A stretch of 64,000 nt of DNA from positions 1 to 64,000 of the forward strand of contig JBDHAC010000004.1 of the NCBI GenBank assembly GCA_039588275.1, in the 5' to 3' direction. Shown here one piece after another: positions 26,596 to 36,539 of this stretch (within the stretch, counting starts at the first letter, position 1; every line of letters starts with the position of its first letter). Made by a program: the position numbers and the translations under genes. The notes below the pieces were generated by a model. That model made no database searches and had not been told where the DNA came from. It saw nothing but the letters and a program-made list of their open reading frames with translations. The stretch is from Gemmatimonadota bacterium. GTDB lineage: Bacteria; Gemmatimonadota; Gemmatimonadetes; Palauibacterales; Palauibacteraceae.

Positions 26596-28284
26596 ATGAC
26601 CGACGAGAGCAGACAGACGGAGGGCGTCCCCGGGGCATCGGAGCCGCCCATCATCGCATCGCTCGTCCACCTGTCGGGTCCGCTGCGGGGCACGACCCAG
26701 CGCCTCACGGATCTGGTCATTCGCATCGGGACGGCGGCAGATGCCGAGGTCCATTTCCCGACCGATCGAGCGCCGAACGTGGGAGAGCACCACGCAACGC
26801 TCACCCGGCAGGAGCGGACCTACGTGATCAGGTCGCTGGACGATCACGAAGTGCGCGTCAACGGCGGGCCGGTGGAGCGCCGCGTCCTCGAGTGCGAGGA
26901 CGTGATCGAGCTCGGCGCGCGGGGTCCCATCCTCCGCTTCCGCTGTGGGGCTCGTTCCCAGGCGCGGCACAAGAGCATGCGCGAAGCGCTCGCCGATTGC
27001 GTCGACTGCGCGCGGGCCACGGGTGACAGCCGAGTGGGCGCCATCTGGGCCTTTCTCCGTACCTTCCCGCATGAGCTGATGACGCAGACGACGCCTCGCA
27101 CACGTGGCGTCGTGGTGGCGATGCTGTTCGTGATGGCGGTGGGCTTCGGGGCCATCTTCCTGTACGGCCTCGGTCTCGAGCGGCGCCTCGCGCGTGAGTC
27201 GGCGCGCGTTTACGACATCGCCGCGCTGCTCGAGGGCGGGGAAGAGGCACTGCCGACCCGACAGGAGCTCGGTCGCATCCGGGCCGATCTCGAGGGGCAG
27301 GTGTCGAGTGCCGTCGAGCGGGTCGAAGCGCTCGAGGCCAGGAGCTCCGCGGCGGAGCGCGTGATCGAGACGGCGGCGCGATCCGTCGTGTTCCTGCAGG
27401 GATCGTACGGCTTCCTACAGCCACCGGATCAGCGTCCGCTCCGCGTGATGCTCGGTCCGGGTGGCCAACCGCTGACCGATGCGCGAGGCAACCCGCTCGC
27501 CAGCCCGGACGCGGACGGACCGCGGTTGGAGCGTCAGTTCACGGGCACCGGCTTCGTGATCACGGAGGGCGGTTTCCTCCTCACGAACCGTCACATCGTC
27601 GTGCCCTGGGATTTCGACCCCACCGCGCGGCGTCTCGTCGAGGCGGGGCTCACGCCGGTCATGTACCGTCTGATCGGATACGTGCCCGATACCGAAGAGC
27701 CGTTCGAGCTCGAGACCGTCGGCGCCAGTGAAAGCGCGGACGTGGCCGTGCTCCGGGCGGATGGCCTCCCGGCCCAGGTCATCCCGCTCGTACTCTCCGA
27801 GGCTCCTCCGCAGCCGGGCGCCGAGGTGCTGGTGCTGGGCTACCCGACGGGGATACGGGCGTTGCTGGCGCGGACCGACCCCGCCTTCGTCGACGAGCTG
27901 ATGCAAACGCCCGGCATCGACTTCTGGGAGGTCGCGCGGCGACTCTCGCAGGCCGGGCACATCGCGCCGCTGGCGACACGCGGGATCGTCGGACAGGTGA
28001 CTTCGACGCACGTCGTGTACGACGCGGAAACGACGCGCGGGGGCAGCGGCGGGCCCGTGCTGGGTCTCGACGATCGAGTGATCGCGGTCAACGCGGCCGT
28101 CCTGAACGAGTTCGGGGGATCGAATCTCGGCGTGCCTGCGGCCGAGGCCTTCGCACTGCTCGAAGCCCTGTCGACTCGGGGTGAGGCGGCGGAGGGTTCC
28201 GAGGACCCTCAAAGGCTTGAGGACCCACAGAGGCCGGGTGCGCACGGCCCGGGGACTCCGGACACCCTTCCAAGGCGCCATTGA
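26596..28284 (+). CDS. FHA-domain / TM / coiled-coil / trypsin-like serine protease
   Basis: N-terminal FHA-like region (IRIG...HHATL...VNG...DVIELG), one TM helix, coiled coil, then triad motifs GTGF...LTNRHIV, ADVAVL, GGSGGPV. Confidence 0.85.
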   Translation: MTDESRQTEGVPGASEPPIIASLVHLSGPLRGTTQRLTDLVIRIGTAADAEVHFPTDRAPNVGEHHATLTRQERTYVIRSLDDHEVRVNGGPVERRVLECEDVIELGARGPILRFRCGARSQARHKSMREALADCVDCARATGDSRVGAIWAFLRTFPHELMTQTTPRTRGVVVAMLFVMAVGFGAIFLYGLGLERRLARESARVYDIAALLEGGEEALPTRQELGRIRADLEGQVSSAVERVEALEARSSAAERVIETAARSVVFLQGSYGFLQPPDQRPLRVMLGPGGQPLTDARGNPLASPDADGPRLERQFTGTGFVITEGGFLLTNRHIVVPWDFDPTARRLVEAGLTPVMYRLIGYVPDTEEPFELETVGASESADVAVLRADGLPAQVIPLVLSEAPPQPGAEVLVLGYPTGIRALLARTDPAFVDELMQTPGIDFWEVARRLSQAGHIAPLATRGIVGQVTSTHVVYDAETTRGGSGGPVLGLDDRVIAVNAAVLNEFGGSNLGVPAAEAFALLEALSTRGEAAEGSEDPQRLEDPQRPGAHGPGTPDTLPRRH

Positions 28285-28988: not shown

Positions 28989-30227
28989 GTGCAGCAATCA
29001 CTGACACTCGGCGGCCAGACGGGGCGCAGGGCGCTCAGCTTCTCGTTTGGCGTCGGCATGATCGTCTCGTCGATCATGACGGTACGGCACTACTTCGCCG
29101 CCAACTTTCCCGAATCCATCTTCGAAGGCTCCTTTTGCGACATCAACGCGTTCTTCAACTGTGACGCTTCGGCATACGCGGTCATATCACAGATAGGCGG
29201 TGTGCCGCTCGGCTATTTCGGCATGTCCGTCGGGCTGCTGGTCGTTATGGGAGCGGTGTTTCCGTCACTGGAGGTCGAGAGGACCAACAAGACGATCGCC
29301 CTGGTGAACGTGATCGGCGTCGTGGCGCTTCTTCTGTATTCCGTGTCTTACATGCGAAGCCTGTGCCTGCTGTGCGCCGGTTTCTACCTGTTCTCTATCG
29401 CCAACTTCGTCCTGTTCTGGCGGTACGGGATCGATCGGGACCAGCCGGGGCTTTTCGCCCGCTACTTTCAGCCTTCCGCGAGGCACGCCCTCGCGTTCGG
29501 AACGGTCATGCTGGGCGGAGCGTACGGCTTCGCCGAGTACCACGAGGCCAGGGAGGAAGCGCAATCAGGTAGCGTCGCCGCCCGCGTGGTGGAGGAGTTC
29601 TACAGCCTGCCGACGGTGGAGTGGCCCAGCTTCATCTCTCCGTATTGGACCATGAGGTCGACCGAGAACTTCGAGGACGCACCGATCCGGATCGTCGAGT
29701 ACGTCGACCTCCTGTGCCCGGACTGCCTGTATCTCGCGGAGCAGATGGAGCGAGCGGCGCAGGACTTTCACGGGAAGATCAACCTCGCGTATCAGCTCTT
29801 CCCGTTGGAGGCGGCGTGCAACGACGTGGTCGAAAAGGACCTGCACCCGGGCGCCTGCGATGTCTCGTACATGGCCGCGTACGACCCCGACAAGTTCCAT
29901 GACATTCAGGAGGACATCTGGGCCAACTTTCGAGCGGCCCGCACACCCGAAGGGCGTGAGGAGCTTGCCCGGAAGTACCAGGTCGACGCTGCGCTGACCG
30001 ACTCGGCCACGATCCACCTCGTGCGCCGGATGATCGAGACGGGCCGCGAGTACGAAAAGACGTCGGAGGAGTACTCGCACGGCATCCGGTCGACGCCGAC
30101 GATGATCGTCAACAACCGCATGATCATCGGCACGTTCCCCTACGAGCAGCTCAAAGCCATCTTCCAGGCGCTCGTGGATGAGCACGAGGGCGGAGGCCGG
30201 TTCATGGAGAACTGGGTGGAGGAGTAG
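28989..30227 (+). CDS. VKOR-domain / DsbA-like thioredoxin fusion
   Basis: VKOR loop cysteines CDINAFFNC and redox CLLC in a TM region; C-terminal thioredoxin fold with DLLCPDC and GIRSTPT (cis-Pro loop). GTG start after GGAGG. Confidence 0.88.
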   Translation: MQQSLTLGGQTGRRALSFSFGVGMIVSSIMTVRHYFAANFPESIFEGSFCDINAFFNCDASAYAVISQIGGVPLGYFGMSVGLLVVMGAVFPSLEVERTNKTIALVNVIGVVALLLYSVSYMRSLCLLCAGFYLFSIANFVLFWRYGIDRDQPGLFARYFQPSARHALAFGTVMLGGAYGFAEYHEAREEAQSGSVAARVVEEFYSLPTVEWPSFISPYWTMRSTENFEDAPIRIVEYVDLLCPDCLYLAEQMERAAQDFHGKINLAYQLFPLEAACNDVVEKDLHPGACDVSYMAAYDPDKFHDIQEDIWANFRAARTPEGREELARKYQVDAALTDSATIHLVRRMIETGREYEKTSEEYSHGIRSTPTMIVNNRMIIGTFPYEQLKAIFQALVDEHEGGGRFMENWVEE

Positions 30228-31113
30228 GAGGCTGCTGACGAACCCGAGTGGGCCGCGCGCCCATCGAAGGAGAGTCACGACGCGGCTGGCATGGGTCGGA
30301 GCCTTCGCGGCGCTGTTGTACGCCCCGCTCGACGGACACGGGCAAGCGCGGCGCGATCCGGTCCTGCAGCCGGTATCGGCGGTGAAGGCGCGGACCATCC
30401 TTCTCGGCGCGGGCCTGGCCTGGGGGTCGGACCGCTCGTTCCCTCTCTCCGGACTCGAAGGCAATCTTCTCTCGATAGGGCGTCTGAGTCTCGCCTACGC
30501 GCTCGCCGACCGGGTCCTCCTCGAAATCCGGGGCGACGTGTGGCAAACGCTGTGGGTGGATGAGGCCGACCCTCCTCCAATCCCACTCGACTCCGATGCG
30601 CAGGACGGCCGCACAGGGGATGTCGGCGATTTTCGCATCGGCTTGCTCCTCGCGCCGATCGGGGGTGAGCGCGGCTTCTCGGCCGGGGCACACGTGGAGG
30701 TGAAGCTCCCAAACTCGAACGAGGCGAAAGGGATCGGATCCAACACGACGGATGTGCGGCTCGCTCTACTCGGTTCGTACGGGGCTCCCCGTTGGCGCGC
30801 GACCGTCAGCCTCGGGGTCGGGATCCTCGAGGCCCCGGTGGAGAGCTTCGAGCAGAACGACGTCTTTCTGTATGCGGGCGAGCTGCTCTATCGGGTGGGG
30901 TCGGGCTTGCGGCTCGCCCTCGGTCTGGAAGGCCGTGCCAGCACCCGTGATCGGGTCCCTCTCGGGACCGAGGACCTCGGCGAGGTCGTCATCGGGGCGG
31001 ACTATCGGCTCGGATCCTGGCTCCTGGATGTGGGCCTGACCCGGGGACTCGTGGAGGACTCGTCGGAGTGGGGCGTGAGGGCGGGGTGGGCATACGCGGC
31101 CGGTGGGCCCTGA
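30178..31113 (+). CDS. Putative outer-membrane beta-barrel protein (true start probably about 30232-30290)
   Basis: Signal-like segment; amphipathic beta-strands; GDVGDFRIG, VKLPNS...GIGSNTTD; C-terminal WGVRAGWAY. Confidence 0.6.
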   Translation: MSTRAEAGSWRTGWRSRRLLTNPSGPRAHRRRVTTRLAWVGAFAALLYAPLDGHGQARRDPVLQPVSAVKARTILLGAGLAWGSDRSFPLSGLEGNLLSIGRLSLAYALADRVLLEIRGDVWQTLWVDEADPPPIPLDSDAQDGRTGDVGDFRIGLLLAPIGGERGFSAGAHVEVKLPNSNEAKGIGSNTTDVRLALLGSYGAPRWRATVSLGVGILEAPVESFEQNDVFLYAGELLYRVGSGLRLALGLEGRASTRDRVPLGTEDLGEVVIGADYRLGSWLLDVGLTRGLVEDSSEWGVRAGWAYAAGGP

Positions 31114-31158
31114 GGCGCCGGTCATGCTCGAGGCTACCCGGGCCGGTCGTGAATCGCG

Positions 31159-33249
31159 TCAGGGCTGCCCCCCACCTCCGACCGACCGGTCGATCCCGAG
31201 CACGAGCCCGGCCGCCAGCGTCGTGAAGGACTCGCTCCCACCCGGAGGTCGTTGGTGCCTCACGAAGATTTGGAAGCGACTCGAAGCCCCGAGATCGGCC
31301 GATAGACGGAACTGGCCCTCGAGCAGGGACCCGCTCAGGTCGTCGGACTGGCTCTCCACCGACCCGTATCCGAACACCGGCTCGATCTCGAGCGGACCGA
31401 CGGGGCGGTACGCGAACCCGAGGTAGCCCCGCACTTCGCTCTCCGCGATCCGTCGGTCGTCGAGCACCGTGACCGTCTCACCGAAGTATACGGCTGGCCG
31501 TACCGCGAAACGATCGCTCGCCTGGATGTCGGCCCTCCCGTAGCCGACCCAATCGTCCCGGTCGAACCACCGTCCCAGGTACCCGCCGAACGCGATTTCA
31601 CCGCGACCCTGCGTGAGCTTGACCGCTTGCTCCCCGTGGTAGACGTACTCGAACAGATCCCCCGCCTGGTTCCTCCGCCCGGCCTCGAACGAGGTGATCA
31701 GACGACGATCCTGGCCCCAGGCGAGCGCCAGCCCTCCGAAGTAGGACTCCAGATCCTGAGTGCGGCGGACGAACAACGGGTTGTGGAGTCCGAGCGCGTT
31801 GTCGTATCGACCCCATATGCGCAGGAACGGGAACGGCCAGATGGACGCCTCGACCATGATGGTCCCCGTCGTCTCGCCGGTCTCGATCGCCGTGCCGCCC
31901 CAGATGTCCAGCTGCAGCCATGGAGGCAGGCTCGGGAGGGACGCGAGCTGGGCGTCGACCTGCTCCGAGAGCTCGGGGTCAAGCTCGAGCGCGCGGCGGA
32001 AGGCGGCGCGAGCCTCGTCCATCTCACCGGCCGCTGCCCACGCGCGCCCCAGCTCGAACCAGGCCTCGGCGTCGTCGGGGTCGAGCGAGACGGCCCCCTG
32101 ATACAGCCGTAGGGCTCCCTCGGCGTCTCCGCTCGCGAGCGCCTCGGCCGCCAGCTGCTTCCGCTGGAGGACGATCGCCGCTGTCTCACCCGCCTCCTCC
32201 ACCGCCTGCTCGATCTGGGGTTGGCGCTCATCTGCGGGATCGGGCGCCGCCTCCTCCGGGTCGCCGGCGGTCGGTGGGCCCTGCTCTTCGGGTTCCGGTG
32301 CCTCGGCTATCGCCGTAACGGGGGACGGCATCACCGGCAACGAAGCCAGCGTGAGGCCATCGCTCTGCACTTCCAGGACGTAGCGTGCCAGCTCCGCGGT
32401 CGCCGGGACCGTGAACAGCACGGTTCCGCTCGCGTCAGCCGTGCGCGTCGACTCCTGCACGGGTGGCGGAGTGCCCACGAGCCCGCGGGAAGTCGCCCGA
32501 GCACGAAGCGTCAGAACGGCGTTGGGAACGCGGTTCCCGTACCTGTCGAACGCGACCGCCGACACCTCGAGGGTCCCGGTGGGCTCGTCCGGGAGGACGA
32601 GCCGATCCGGCTCGACTTCGACCCGCGCGGGTGAGCCCGCTGCGACATCCAGCACTACCCCTACCGGGCCGGTCAACGATTCGCCCACCGCGGTGACCAC
32701 GAGCGAATGGCTTGCCGCCCCGGTCCCGGCCGGAACTCGAAATCGGGCCTGGCCCTGAGCGTCGGTGGTCGCGCGCATGGTGCTGGCCAGGCCGCCGGGG
32801 ATGTTCTCGGTGCCTCTCAGGACCAGTTGTACCCCTGCTCGCGGACCCTCAGGGCCGCGCAGCTGCACCGTCAGCGTCGCGGTGCCGCCAACGCGGGCAG
32901 CCAACCTCGGCGTGGAGAGGCTGATGAGAAGCGGCGTGGGCTCAGCGGGAGTGGGTGGAGGTGACGCGCACGCGTCGATCGCGGCCAGGATCGTCGCATC
33001 AGCACCGAGCTGCCGCAGATCGGCAAGGTCACGAGCGCTGGGCTCGAAGCTCAGGCAACTGCGCTGGACTATGGCCACCACTTCGGGACGGGTATACGTC
33101 CCGCCGCTCAGGAGGCGGGTCAGATCGCTCTTCGAGAGCGGTGCCGGACGCCGGGCGCCGGGGTCCTGGCCCTGGGCGAGCCCCGGACACGCCGCCAGTA
33201 CGGCGAAGAGAATCGCGGCGCCGCGCAGCATACCGACCGATCGGGTCAC
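31159..33249 (-). CDS. Secreted multidomain protein: small helical N-domain, Ig-like (Big_1-like) domains, TPRs and C-terminal beta-barrel-like region
   Basis: Signal peptide; Ig motifs ATTDAQGQARF and AFDRYGNRVP...TADASGTVLF; TPRs (YQGAVSLDPDDAEAWFELG...AFRRALELDP); ~250-aa aromatic/Gly-rich amphipathic C-terminus. GTG start overlaps the upstream stop (GTGA). Confidence 0.7.
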   Translation of the reverse strand: MTRSVGMLRGAAILFAVLAACPGLAQGQDPGARRPAPLSKSDLTRLLSGGTYTRPEVVAIVQRSCLSFEPSARDLADLRQLGADATILAAIDACASPPPTPAEPTPLLISLSTPRLAARVGGTATLTVQLRGPEGPRAGVQLVLRGTENIPGGLASTMRATTDAQGQARFRVPAGTGAASHSLVVTAVGESLTGPVGVVLDVAAGSPARVEVEPDRLVLPDEPTGTLEVSAVAFDRYGNRVPNAVLTLRARATSRGLVGTPPPVQESTRTADASGTVLFTVPATAELARYVLEVQSDGLTLASLPVMPSPVTAIAEAPEPEEQGPPTAGDPEEAAPDPADERQPQIEQAVEEAGETAAIVLQRKQLAAEALASGDAEGALRLYQGAVSLDPDDAEAWFELGRAWAAAGEMDEARAAFRRALELDPELSEQVDAQLASLPSLPPWLQLDIWGGTAIETGETTGTIMVEASIWPFPFLRIWGRYDNALGLHNPLFVRRTQDLESYFGGLALAWGQDRRLITSFEAGRRNQAGDLFEYVYHGEQAVKLTQGRGEIAFGGYLGRWFDRDDWVGYGRADIQASDRFAVRPAVYFGETVTVLDDRRIAESEVRGYLGFAYRPVGPLEIEPVFGYGSVESQSDDLSGSLLEGQFRLSADLGASSRFQIFVRHQRPPGGSESFTTLAAGLVLGIDRSVGGGGQP

Positions 33250-35372
33250 GGCACGATCCGTAGCCGCGTGGGTGGCGCGGGTGGAGTCGTGTCGGCCACC
33301 CGCGGCGTCGTGACGTTTACCGCGGCGCTTCGTGCGCTCTCGAGGCCCGCGCCGTTGACGGCCGAGACCTGGTAGCTGTACTGCGTGTTCGCGACCACCG
33401 TCGTGTCCGCGAACGTCGTCGTAGTGCTCGTGGCCCTGACTGCTCCGTTTCGGTAGATGCGATAGCTAGCGACGCCCGACTCGGGGTCCGTCGCGGCGCT
33501 CCACGTCAAAGTAACGCGTGTGGGCCCCTCAGGCGTGACAACGAGTCCGGCCGGCACCGTCGGCGGCGAAGTATCCGCCGAGGCGGGCGTCGTGATGCTC
33601 AGCGGGGCGCTGCGCGCGCTCTCGATTCCCTCGCCGTTGATGGCGGAGATCTGGTAGCTGTAGGTCGTGCTCGCCTGTAGGCCGGCATCCATGAAACTCG
33701 TGCTTGTGCTCGACCCGACGCGCGCGCCGTCGCGATAGATGTTGTAGCTGTCCACGCCGGACTCGGGGTCGCTTGAAGCGCTCCAGGTGAGGGTGACGCT
33801 CGTCGGAGACGTCGCGCTCGCCGCCAGGTCGGCAGGTACCGTAGGCGGCGTCGTGTCGGCCGGAGCCGGTGTGGTCACGCTTACCGCGGTGCTCAGACCA
33901 CTCTCCAGGCCCTCTCCGTTCACCGCGGAAACCTGATAACGGTACGTGTTTCCACCCCGCACGCCGCCGTCCGTGAAGGTCGTGTTCGTGCTCGACCCGA
34001 CGCGCGCGCCGTCGCGGTAGATGTTGTAGCTGTCCACGCCGGACTCGGGGTCGCTTGAAGCGCTCCAGGTGAGGGTGACGCTCGTCGGAGACGTCGCGCT
34101 CGCCGCCAGTCCCGTGGGCACCGTAGGTGGCGTGGTGTCGGGCGGGGGGAGCGTGGTGACCACGACGGTCGCCGTAGGCGGACCCTCCAGTCCGTCCCCG
34201 TTTACGGCTGTCACCTGATAGCTGTATTGCGTGGAGCCGGTAAGCCCCGTGTCGCTGAACGAAGTGGTCGTGCTGGAGCCGACGATGCTGCCATCGCGGT
34301 AGATGTTGTAGCTGGCCACGCCGGACTCCGGATCGCTGGCGGCCGTCCACGTGAGAGCGACCCGATCGTGAGCAACGGCCTGCGCCGCGAGTCCGGAGGG
34401 CGCGGTTGGCGGGGTATCGTCGGCCGTCTGAACCGTCACGGAGGCGCTCAGGGCACCTTCGGTGCCGGCCCCGTTCACGGCGGAGACCTCGTAGGTGTAC
34501 GTCGTGTTCCCGCTCAACCCCGTGTCCGAGAAGGTCGTGGTCGTGTTGGAGCCCACGATGGCGCCATCGCGGTAGATGTTGTAGCTGTCCACGCCGGATT
34601 CGGGGTCCGAGGCCGCCGTCCACGAGAGATCCACCTGTGTCGCCCCGGCGGCAATGGCGGCCAGCGCGGTCGGGGCCGTCGGCGGCGTGTTGTCGAACGT
34701 GGTCGCCAGGATCCGGACGCTCAGCGCTCCCTCGAGACCCTCTCCGTTCACCGCGCTGACCTGGTACGAATAGGTCTGGTTCACCTGCAGCCCCGTGTCG
34801 GAAAAGGTCGTGGTGGAGCTCGACCCGACCTGTGCTCCGTCGCGGTAGATGTTGTAGCTGGCGATGCCCGTCTCTGGGTCCGAGGCCGGCGCCCACCGGA
34901 GGTCCACGCTCGTGGCCCCGATCGAAGTGGCCGTCAGGCCAGTCGGTTGCGTGGGAGGCGTAATGTCGGGGAGTGGCGTGGTGACGGTGGTGGGCGGGGT
35001 GCTGCGCGGTCCTTCCTGATCCAGCGAATCCACCGCCGAAACGCGGTACGAGTAGGTCGTGACCGGCTGAACCGTCGTATCGATGAAGCTGGTCGTCGTG
35101 GACGTGAAGACCGGACCGTCCCCCCGGTAGATGACATAGTGCTTCACGGGTGGCTGGCTGACCACCGCATCCCACGTGATCCGGACGCGACGGCTGCTGA
35201 GCGCCGTGGCTGCCACGTTGCGCGGTTTGCTGGGCGCAACGGTGGTGCGGTCCGCGTCGGGAGAGGCCCCGGAGCGCGGTGCCGGCGCCGCCCCTGCAAG
35301 CACAACGGTCAGGAGCACGAGCCCGAGCGCCATCCGGGATTCCGGTCTCCACGCCCCGCCGAGCCCGCTCAT
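33246..35372 (-). CDS. Secreted protein of seven tandem fibronectin type III domains with a C-terminal orphan FN3 A-strand
   Basis: ATG 35372 overlaps the upstream stop (alternative start 35333); hydrophobic signal; seven ~92-aa repeats, repeats 2-7 reading DxxPPTxPxxL...W...DPExG..SYxIYRxG...YxVxAVN and repeat 1 more divergent; ends DTTPPAPPTRLRIVP*. Confidence 0.9.
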   Translation of the reverse strand: MSGLGGAWRPESRMALGLVLLTVVLAGAAPAPRSGASPDADRTTVAPSKPRNVAATALSSRRVRITWDAVVSQPPVKHYVIYRGDGPVFTSTTTSFIDTTVQPVTTYSYRVSAVDSLDQEGPRSTPPTTVTTPLPDITPPTQPTGLTATSIGATSVDLRWAPASDPETGIASYNIYRDGAQVGSSSTTTFSDTGLQVNQTYSYQVSAVNGEGLEGALSVRILATTFDNTPPTAPTALAAIAAGATQVDLSWTAASDPESGVDSYNIYRDGAIVGSNTTTTFSDTGLSGNTTYTYEVSAVNGAGTEGALSASVTVQTADDTPPTAPSGLAAQAVAHDRVALTWTAASDPESGVASYNIYRDGSIVGSSTTTSFSDTGLTGSTQYSYQVTAVNGDGLEGPPTATVVVTTLPPPDTTPPTVPTGLAASATSPTSVTLTWSASSDPESGVDSYNIYRDGARVGSSTNTTFTDGGVRGGNTYRYQVSAVNGEGLESGLSTAVSVTTPAPADTTPPTVPADLAASATSPTSVTLTWSASSDPESGVDSYNIYRDGARVGSSTSTSFMDAGLQASTTYSYQISAINGEGIESARSAPLSITTPASADTSPPTVPAGLVVTPEGPTRVTLTWSAATDPESGVASYRIYRNGAVRATSTTTTFADTTVVANTQYSYQVSAVNGAGLESARSAAVNVTTPRVADTTPPAPPTRLRIVP
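33706..34109. repeat. Near-perfect 122-bp direct repeat (33706-33827 and 33988-34109) within FN3 repeats 5 and 6
   Basis: Copies are offset by 282 bp and differ at one position (cgcgAtagat vs cgcgGtagat) by manual comparison. Confidence 0.9.
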
Positions 35373-35755
35373 TCTCCTCTGAGCTCCGCGCTGACCTCGC
35401 CGGACAGGGCGCTCTCGTTGCCGTCCAGGTCGAGCGCCGTCACCGCGAAGTAGTAAATGCCGCCGGACAGGTGGGTCAGCGTGTGGGTCGTCTCGGAGCC
35501 TACCTCCACCATGGTGCTGGCGTCTTTCGTGAGCGGCGTCGTTTGGCTGTAATAGAGCCTGTACGAGGCCAAGTCGGTGAGCGGCGCCCCGGTGGCATCC
35601 GTGGCAGGGGGATCCCAGGCAAGGGTGATCGAAAATGTCTGGATCTGGGAAGGTGGTCCGGTGAAATCCGCCGGTGCGCCGGGCTGGCAGGCCATCCCGA
35701 GTGAAACCAGGACTGCGAGGACCGACCTGCGTCCCCGGGAAGGGAATCCGTCCAT
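35369..35755 (-). CDS. Lipoprotein with a single FN3-like domain
   Basis: Basic N-region and lipobox LGMA-C; SITLAWDPP...DLASYRLYY...LSGGIYYFAVTALDLDGNESALSGEV is the FN3 B-G strand pattern. Confidence 0.8.
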   Translation of the reverse strand: MDGFPSRGRRSVLAVLVSLGMACQPGAPADFTGPPSQIQTFSITLAWDPPATDATGAPLTDLASYRLYYSQTTPLTKDASTMVEVGSETTHTLTHLSGGIYYFAVTALDLDGNESALSGEVSAELRGE

Positions 35756-36140
35756 CTCGCTCTCGCTCCACCCTTTCGAGGAACTCGCCCGCGCGGGGCA
35801 ATCGCGCCGCCGGAGCCCCTGCTCCGTGGCCCGCCGCGCCGGCATCTCCAGTCCCTGCGCCCGCGACAGGTGGGCGCAATCGTGAAGATGCCATGGCCGA
35901 GTCCGCCGCTCCGCACCGCGTTCGCCGACGCACGTTAGTGCGACAGGCTACTTCCCCCGGAGCAATCCGGACGTACCGAACGCATACGCGAATGACGCAG
36001 GAAATGCAAACCCGCTCGGGCTGTGGGGGCTTCCTTGCTCGCTGGAAGGAGGCCATCCAACTTCCGTCGACGGGAGGGCATGCGACCGGGGGCGCGGGGG
36101 CATGCGACCGGGTGATACGGCCGACACAGGAAGAGACGAC

Positions 36141-36539
36141 GTGAACCAGGACTCCGACCCCACCGAGTCGATCCGCAGAATCTCGCGAGAACGTGCCGAA
36201 CGAATCGGACGCAAGGCTTTCGACGAGATGGTGGATGCCTTCTACGCAGACGATGCGCAGTTGCTCCCATCGGGGGCTTCGGCCCTGCGTGGTCGAGAGA
36301 AGATTCGGCGGTTCTGGCACCTGACGCCTGACGAGGGACTCGTGTCTCTCACACTCGGGAGCCGGGAGATCGAGGCGTCCGGGGATCTGGCGTTCGAGAT
36401 CGGTCGCTTCTCGAGGACCGTGCGCCCGCGTCACGGCGCGCCATTCCAGGAACATGGGAAGTACATCGTCGTCTATCGTCATGGTGCAGACGGCTATCGG
36501 GCCATTGCCGAGATGTACAACAGCGACGCGAGACGCTGA
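36141..36539 (+). CDS. DUF4440/SnoaL (NTF2-like) protein
   Basis: FYADDAQLLPSG...RGREKIRRFW...SGDLAFEIGRF...GKYIVVYR; GTG start at 36141. Confidence 0.8.
   Translation: MNQDSDPTESIRRISRERAERIGRKAFDEMVDAFYADDAQLLPSGASALRGREKIRRFWHLTPDEGLVSLTLGSREIEASGDLAFEIGRFSRTVRPRHGAPFQEHGKYIVVYRHGADGYRAIAEMYNSDARR

Follow-up and report, generated by a model that had tools for sequence, protein, structure and literature searches.

The window, a stretch of 64,000 nucleotides from a Gemmatimonadota bacterium, encodes on its minus strand a putative lipoprotein whose single fibronectin type III (FN3)-type domain is predicted to lack strand A and, overlapping it, a rod of seven complete FN3 repeats that ends in an orphan strand-A tail. 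Comparison of related loci and structure prediction suggest that the rod tail probably completes the lipoprotein fold by donor-strand complementation and tethers the rod to a membrane. The two-part module is real, conserved and, as far as found, unpublished; none of the papers listed in the literature searches describes a natural FN3 domain split into tag and socket. If binding is confirmed, the lipoprotein-tail pair would represent a new form of donor-strand complementation.

Architecture of the lipoprotein and the rod

Three minus-strand genes lie in series, each sharing four bases with the next, and display the following features.

35369–35755, minus strand: gene for a predicted lipoprotein, 128 aa, with one FN3-type domain predicted to lack strand A, the "socket" (sequence, Pfam, AF2, profile alignment)
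35687–35755, minus strand: signal peptide and lipobox-like site, last residue Cys23 (sequence inspection, invariant Cys)
35636–35686, minus strand: Pro/Gly-rich linker, residues 24–40, with a degenerate P-x-x-P-x-x-F motif at 35683–35663
35381–35635, minus strand: six-stranded FN3 core (strands B, C, C', E, F, G), residues 41–125 (AF2, Foldseek)
35369–35372, minus strand: ATGA overlap of lipoprotein stop and rod start (sequence)
33246–35372, minus strand: rod gene, 708 aa, with signal-like N-terminus (hydrophobic leader), seven FN3 repeats and orphan tail
33294–35246, minus strand: seven complete FN3 repeats (35246–34968, 34967–34695, 34694–34422, 34421–34140, 34139–33858, 33857–33576, 33575–33294)
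33249–33293, minus strand: orphan strand-A tail DTTPPAPPTRLRIVP, the "plug"
33246–33249, minus strand: GTGA overlap of rod stop and third-gene start (sequence)
31159–33249, minus strand: third gene, 696 aa, with signal-like N-terminus, weak Ig-like region, TPR (~32154–31972) and a likely outer-membrane β-barrel (~31929–31162)

No promoter or terminator consensus was found in 30900–36200. A convergent 311-aa gene (30178–31113, plus strand), which matches no Pfam or NCBIfam model, accompanies the operon in just two close relatives, and nearby genes encode a VKOR-DsbA fusion (28989–30227) and a Yop-YscD_cpl (FHA-like) protein with a trypsin-like protease (26596–28284).

The rod, for which inspection predicts a signal peptide, matches PF00041 in seven stretches (Pfam, E 3e-66), comprising repeats of 91–94 aa that all possess their own strand A; it contains no incomplete domain. 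Repeats 2–7 open with D-x-x-P-P-T-x-P-x-x-L, and the strand-B Trp lies 14 residues past that Leu. Past repeat 7, the 15 residues of DTTPPAPPTRLRIVP (33293–33249) are followed directly by TGA, so that the orphan start of an eighth repeat, described in the original prediction from the same opening motif, is indeed present in the sequence.

The lipoprotein gives a partial match to PF00041 (E 6e-5; 23.6 bits, slightly short of the cut-off, 25) that covers residues 36–116 and profile positions 9–76 of 84. When its profile was aligned with that of the rod repeats (probability 94.6), the alignment started at repeat column 17, just ahead of strand B, which together with the partial Pfam match bears out the proposal that this FN3 domain opens essentially at strand B. 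AF2 models computed from 19 and from 132 sequences both present six strands and no strand A (mean pLDDT 80.7 and 87.1, respectively), and the blocks of the six-stranded core reach pLDDT values of 84–97. A Foldseek search with the lipoprotein model returned FN3 domains as top matches. Neither model displays the seven strands, strand A included, of a complete FN3 domain; folding of the lipoprotein alone as a seven-stranded FN3, which the original prediction had named as evidence against itself, was therefore not seen. A signal peptide and lipidation are predicted for the protein from inspection, and the Cys23 column is invariant in 132 aligned sequences, with a Cys-to-Trp distance of 21–29 residues in 122 homologues. 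Two Gemmatimonadota records with a 76–77% identical lipoprotein yield proteins identical to those of two loci in the relatives, and each entered the counts a single time.

The segment ahead of strand B retains some features of a strand-A start. The full start motif, P-x-x-[LV] at 13–16 residues ahead of the Trp, occurs in 8/122 lipoproteins (absent from 114) vs 50/53 rod repeats. In the window, Ile38 of PPSQI precedes Trp47 by 9 residues, as noted originally in comparison with the 14 of the repeats, but PPSQI is not the best strand-A candidate, since PGAPADF (residues 25–31; Phe 16 before the Trp), overlooked in the original prediction, fits a P-x-x-P-x-x-hydrophobic start better. A hydrophobic residue occupies position Trp-14 in 75% of the 122 homologues, followed by Pro at Trp-13 (111/122) and Trp-10 (102/122), and three linker prolines are at least 90% conserved in the lipoprotein alignment. 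No β-strand is predicted in the linker, and residues 33–42 have a mean pLDDT of 73 in the 132-sequence model. The prolines at Trp-13 and Trp-10 and the low incidence of the motif relative to the rod repeats are the grounds on which the domain is classified, from alignment and model, as strand-A-less, although its own linker might sit loosely in the groove. The linker is a possible placeholder in the strand-A groove, and the conserved prolines, the hydrophobic residue at Trp-14 and the pLDDT at residues 33–42 indicate that it may even shield the groove permanently.

Such shielding bears on an alternative in which the lipoprotein domain is stable with six strands, or shielded by its own linker, and binds the tail briefly, as an escort or chaperone, or never. 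The high AF2 confidence of the core (84–97), the conserved linker prolines and the existence of strand-A-less relatives with no detectable tail are all consistent with it. AF2 confidence is, however, no measure of stability, while the tail has the length of one strand and the strict 1:1 coupling of the genes suits a structural partner, which leaves this alternative unlikely.

Conservation of the tail and its association with the lipoprotein

A profile search of 61 related genomes identified the lipoprotein in 17 (E < 1e-20). The 21 loci examined comprise 20 from these genomes and one further locus (L003); one of the 21 breaks off within the lipoprotein and another is a fusion. In all 19 remaining loci the lipoprotein TGA overlaps the partner ATG or GTG (RTGA), and all 19 partners open with a hydrophobic leader. 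Three partners run off the contig, leaving 16 with a visible 3' end, and each of these terminates in the tail D-x-x-P-P-x-x-P-x-x-L-[RH]-[VILA], with 4–7 residues past the Leu before the stop. Orthologues that run on into a full eighth domain, the other outcome named against the prediction, were consequently not observed (16/16 visible ends are tails). The tail is preceded by 0, 1, 2, 3, 4, 5, 6, 7 or 8 repeats. Three partners have no FN3 domain ahead of it: that of L050 is DUF4185-like (E 8.5e-10, slightly under the Pfam cut-off), and those of L052 and L058 carry a non-FN3 region.

Five of the 15 tail positions are invariant in 16 sequences. When 18 tails were compared (the 16 visible partners, one fused rod and one further rod), the residue after the Leu was Arg in 17, whereas 65 internal strand starts have Ala, Thr, Ser or Val there, and L-[RH]-[IVL]-[IV] was present in just one of 91 complete FN3 strand starts of other proteins. 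Against 39,164 six-frame ORFs of the window genome, a tail profile scored 36.2 for the rod end and 12.6 for the next-best match, pointing to a single tail. Judged by these alignments, the tail behaves as a portable module under selection of its own.

The tail might instead be a relic, left by truncation of an eighth repeat or by gene fission, and the next gene, which overlaps the stop, would hold that stop in place; it does resemble the repeat starts, and in the window the rod stop overlaps the start of the third gene. The same tail nevertheless follows 0–8 repeats as well as non-FN3 domains, it is kept where no barrel gene follows (e.g. L050, L051, L052, L057 and L058), and its invariant positions carry a signature unlike that of the repeats. 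The relic reading is thereby largely refuted and can hardly be credited. Truncation or frameshift as the origin of the tail is ruled out by the invariant positions and by the 16 conserved ends, since all visible partners end alike whatever the number of repeats.

Individual loci vary in layout. At L041:4602–6414 (G027) a frameshifted rod gene extends over two frames (3 + 4 repeats) with the tail on the second piece. L042 (G028) has a tandem layout, in which a rod end with its tail is followed by a lipoprotein gene, a second tailed rod and the barrel gene, in a genome with three lipoprotein copies and three tails. In L050 and L052 (G040 and G037) the genes around the pair resemble, by eye, those for polysaccharide deacetylases and glycosyltransferases; behind the pair lies a paralogue of the DUF4185-like cargo, itself a lipoprotein without the tail. 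At L054:3831–6476 (G030), socket, seven repeats and tail form one ORF whose junction resembles a decayed signal peptide; this arrangement, present in one genome only, is either a natural fusion or an assembly artefact.

Across the 61 genomes, the search for co-occurrence suggested in the original prediction revealed the tail in 15 of the 17 genomes with the lipoprotein, the partner being cut by contig ends in the other two, and in 0/44 of those without it; as the genomes are kin and incomplete, these counts are not independent. A degenerate DNA pattern that recovers 16 of the 19 known tails matched two of the 44 lipoprotein-free genomes, and neither match was a C-terminal tail.

The third gene, whose C-terminal region is a likely outer-membrane β-barrel, is often but not always linked to the lipoprotein-rod pair. 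It directly follows the rod in the window and at 9 related loci. Among the 61 genomes it was detected in 21: 14/17 with the lipoprotein and 7/44 lacking both lipoprotein and tail, in one of the latter merely as contig-end fragments. It was not found in three lipoprotein genomes (G008, G037 and G040), of which G037 is 97% complete and G040 is a single contig, 93% complete, with two lipoprotein-tail pairs. The tail tracks the lipoprotein more closely than it tracks the barrel.

These counts bear on the alternative that the tail serves as a signal for export or sorting, read by the TPR/β-barrel protein or other machinery, the lipoprotein having a different role. The position of the barrel gene directly behind the rod, the fixed C-terminal motif on unrelated secreted proteins and the retention of the tail in the L054 fusion agree with such a signal. 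In the atlas, the barrel neighbours clusters of YaiO-like and Slam-like proteins at a score of 0.93, a weak lead in that just 136–159 of 256 features are shared. None of nine barrel sequences matches a Pfam family of the Slam/YaiO type, and no relative of the barrel was found in the PDB. Short, portable C-terminal modules on unrelated secreted proteins are well known as sorting signals (LPXTG, PEP-CTERM, MYXO-CTERM and the T9SS CTD), and the tail also recalls the modular docking of cohesin-dockerin pairs and of SpyTag/SpyCatcher, where SpyTag is engineered and covalent. The tail differs from all of these: it has neither a transmembrane helix nor a basic tail, and it contains no folded CTD and no dockerin that binds calcium. 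It presents neither the motif, the hydrophobic helix nor the basic cluster of sortase or exosortase substrates, and none of 15 C-terminal pieces matched an NCBIfam sorting model; no NCBIfam model covers the tail. The T9SS CTD is a folded domain of ~70–100 aa, in contrast to these 15 residues with no NCBIfam or Pfam match. With the barrel not found in three lipoprotein genomes, including G040 and G037, and found in seven that lack lipoprotein and tail, a sorting signal is quite improbable. The original prediction had offered tether and sorting signal as alternatives; gene coupling and co-occurrence favour the former.

A model for strand complementation and its relation to known systems

The pair combines an incomplete β-sandwich acceptor, whose missing strand is predicted from the models, with a matching free strand on another chain, as donor-strand complementation systems do; physical insertion of the strand, also a mark of such systems, is proposed here. 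In this mechanism, the most economical reading, both chains would be exported, in a ratio of ~1:1 from the coupled genes, and the last 15 residues of the rod would fill the vacant strand-A groove of the lipoprotein to give a seven-stranded FN3 domain. The conserved linker prolines may hold the groove weakly until displaced by the tail. Repeat 7 and the tail are connected by the D-x-x-P-P linker that also lies between successive repeats, so the lipoprotein domain would take the place of an eighth repeat in the rod. The stop, 4–7 residues past the Leu, would fall where strand A finishes before the A-B turn. In the FN3 topology, strand B starts at the end of the domain that lies away from the preceding repeat; being far from repeat 7, this end would place the lipid at the base with the rod pointing away, and the lipid would hold the rod to a membrane by its C-terminal end. 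At 3.5–4 nm per domain the rod would extend ~25–28 nm. A role of the rod as spacer or adhesin is a guess.

A Glu ahead of the strand-B Trp, present in 80/122 lipoproteins vs 0/53 repeats, would presumably face the tail Arg, in the register that we assume from fibronectin. This possible charge pairing between socket and tail is a weak hint, and it fails where the Glu is replaced, by Ala in the window lipoprotein and by Arg in L056 and L057. Several observations speak against the tether: the conserved linker could itself fill the groove, the L054 fusion keeps its tail despite having socket and rod in one ORF, strand-A-less relatives exist with no detected tail, and the tails of the metagenome loci described below, most of them short, have no separate socket gene nearby that was found.

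Donor-strand exchange can be compared with type V pili of Bacteroidia (FimA, Mfa1), in the account of which a C-terminal donor strand fills the β-sandwich groove of a partner, a protease starts the exchange, and subunits of a transthyretin-like two-domain fold polymerise; the anchor is a donor, the tip has no donor strand, and the monomer groove is held by a placeholder strand (PMC13655056). The C-terminal donor, the β-sandwich groove and the lipoprotein anchoring would be shared with the system described here, as may be the placeholder. In contrast, the fold here is FN3 and not two-domain transthyretin-like, and the lipid-anchored protein would be the acceptor and the distal protein the donor. 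A type V stalk subunit carries groove and donor strand together, while neither the window lipoprotein nor any of its 122 homologues has a tail and the rod has no incomplete domain; unlike type V pilins, the pair cannot polymerise. An incomplete Ig-like domain completed by a strand of another chain is likewise a feature of chaperone-usher pili (Fim/Pap), where the donor is an N-terminal extension (PMC13655056), and of the Pam pili of CPR bacteria, where it is an internal linker (PMC13278184). Both are described as needing chaperones; no chaperone or usher family of Pfam or NCBIfam matched any of the three genes, and the donor here is C-terminal. In the chain-like fibres of phages GP4 and A1002, the sheets of small β-rich subunits gain a strand from an extended chain (PMC13730344). 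The main text of that paper, in which "fibronectin" is absent, presents fibre dimers on a rope protein, with no lipoprotein or C-terminal tag.

Strand exchange by FN3 domains themselves is exemplified by anastellin, an incomplete FN3 domain (PMC13233970), described as an animal matrix protein fragment that acts on intact domains and thus different from a gene-encoded tag and socket. It lends plausibility to pairing of the tail with some other strand-deficient domain, or to its swapping into a repeat of another rod to form a mesh, and metagenome tails with no socket nearby fit the same scheme. All seven rod repeats, however, have their own strand A, and the genome (86% complete) contains one such lipoprotein and no second socket-like protein that was found (next-best match E 4.6e-5), so that a different partner is very unlikely.

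Distribution beyond the related loci

A strict tail-plus-stop pattern matched at least 120 metagenome loci, from which ~250 stretches are estimated for the collection; two were left out because of their sample label and 118 were examined. Translation gave the motif in 100 of the 118, with 96 in frames of at least 100 aa or open at the 5' end. As the stop belongs to the pattern, the terminal position of these matches proves nothing, and the cargo is the informative part. Many unrelated secreted proteins of metagenomes thus terminate in a similar tail; among 33 cargo proteins, Pfam identified GSDH propellers, β-helices, BACON repeats, an apiosidase-like domain, an M10 peptidase and a phosphoesterase. 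Of the metagenome tail proteins, just one matches the profile of the FN3 repeats and just one that of the socket. A hydrophobic leader is present in 32 of 36 cargo proteins, a count that has no control and is not taken as evidence. No separate socket gene was found near the tail in the 118 loci, most of which are short.

The same pattern matched 0/401 genomes of the phylum of the window and also misses the tail of the window itself; the result shows its low chance rate and indicates that the metagenome tails come mostly from other lineages. A loose tail pattern matched five genomes of other loci at control level. A socket search across the phylum was positive in 5/251 genomes, which is no test of absence as only 19 candidates per genome were scored. 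In a profile search of 1.84 billion representatives, long proteins with many FN3 domains dominated the output, and the tail ends none of the 150 matches listed.

Socket and tail are combined in one chain only in L054 and L180. The L180 protein is a clear socket homologue (probability 98.5 by profile comparison), with strand B right behind a short hydrophobic leader and a C-terminal tail. As the two elements are only three residues apart in a single chain, head-to-tail chains would be favoured for L180. L110 and L125, taken by eye for further socket-plus-tail proteins, were dropped at profile probabilities of 1.5 and 0.1, and this order was not identified in any solved or phage protein. The small proteins at L180:11–343 and L097:7740–8033 share the ending PGAPTNLRV[IV]F. 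L004 includes three strand-A-less relatives, in a genome with no terminal tail among six of seven pattern matches examined. Six proteins (P0085, P0098, P0150, P0044, P0137 and P0148) contain 3–5 strand-A-less domains in tandem but themselves lack the tail, and are possible scaffolds or, alternatively, possible proof that the domain stands alone.

Together these architectures raise a broader proposal, which we advance tentatively and regard as somewhat more doubtful than probable: the orphan strand might be a general docking code across bacterial phyla, in which socket-only lipoproteins would anchor tailed enzymes and adhesins, socket-plus-tail chains (L180, L054) would polymerise into FN3 filaments, and tandem sockets (P0085, P0150, P0098) would form cellulosome-like scaffolds by strand completion. 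If the tether reading is true, a 15-residue tag and a 100-residue catcher would constitute an undescribed, enzyme-free means of anchoring or displaying secreted proteins, and tagged cargo would become predictable from a C-terminal motif that lies outside the NCBIfam models. Many proteins labelled just "fibronectin type III domain-containing" would acquire a function; 1,607 of 3,430 candidates fall in this class at E 0.001 or better, individual matches being unchecked. A natural non-covalent tag-catcher pair would also be useful for protein engineering.

Two further similarities were recorded. The phage tail wing base protein gp30 (PDB 9d93_Sa) is a weak match to the socket profile (E 0.005) from chain residue 5. 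Elsewhere in the genome of the window, G000:C19:79790–80893 is paralogous to the N-terminal part of the third gene (E 3.5e-17).
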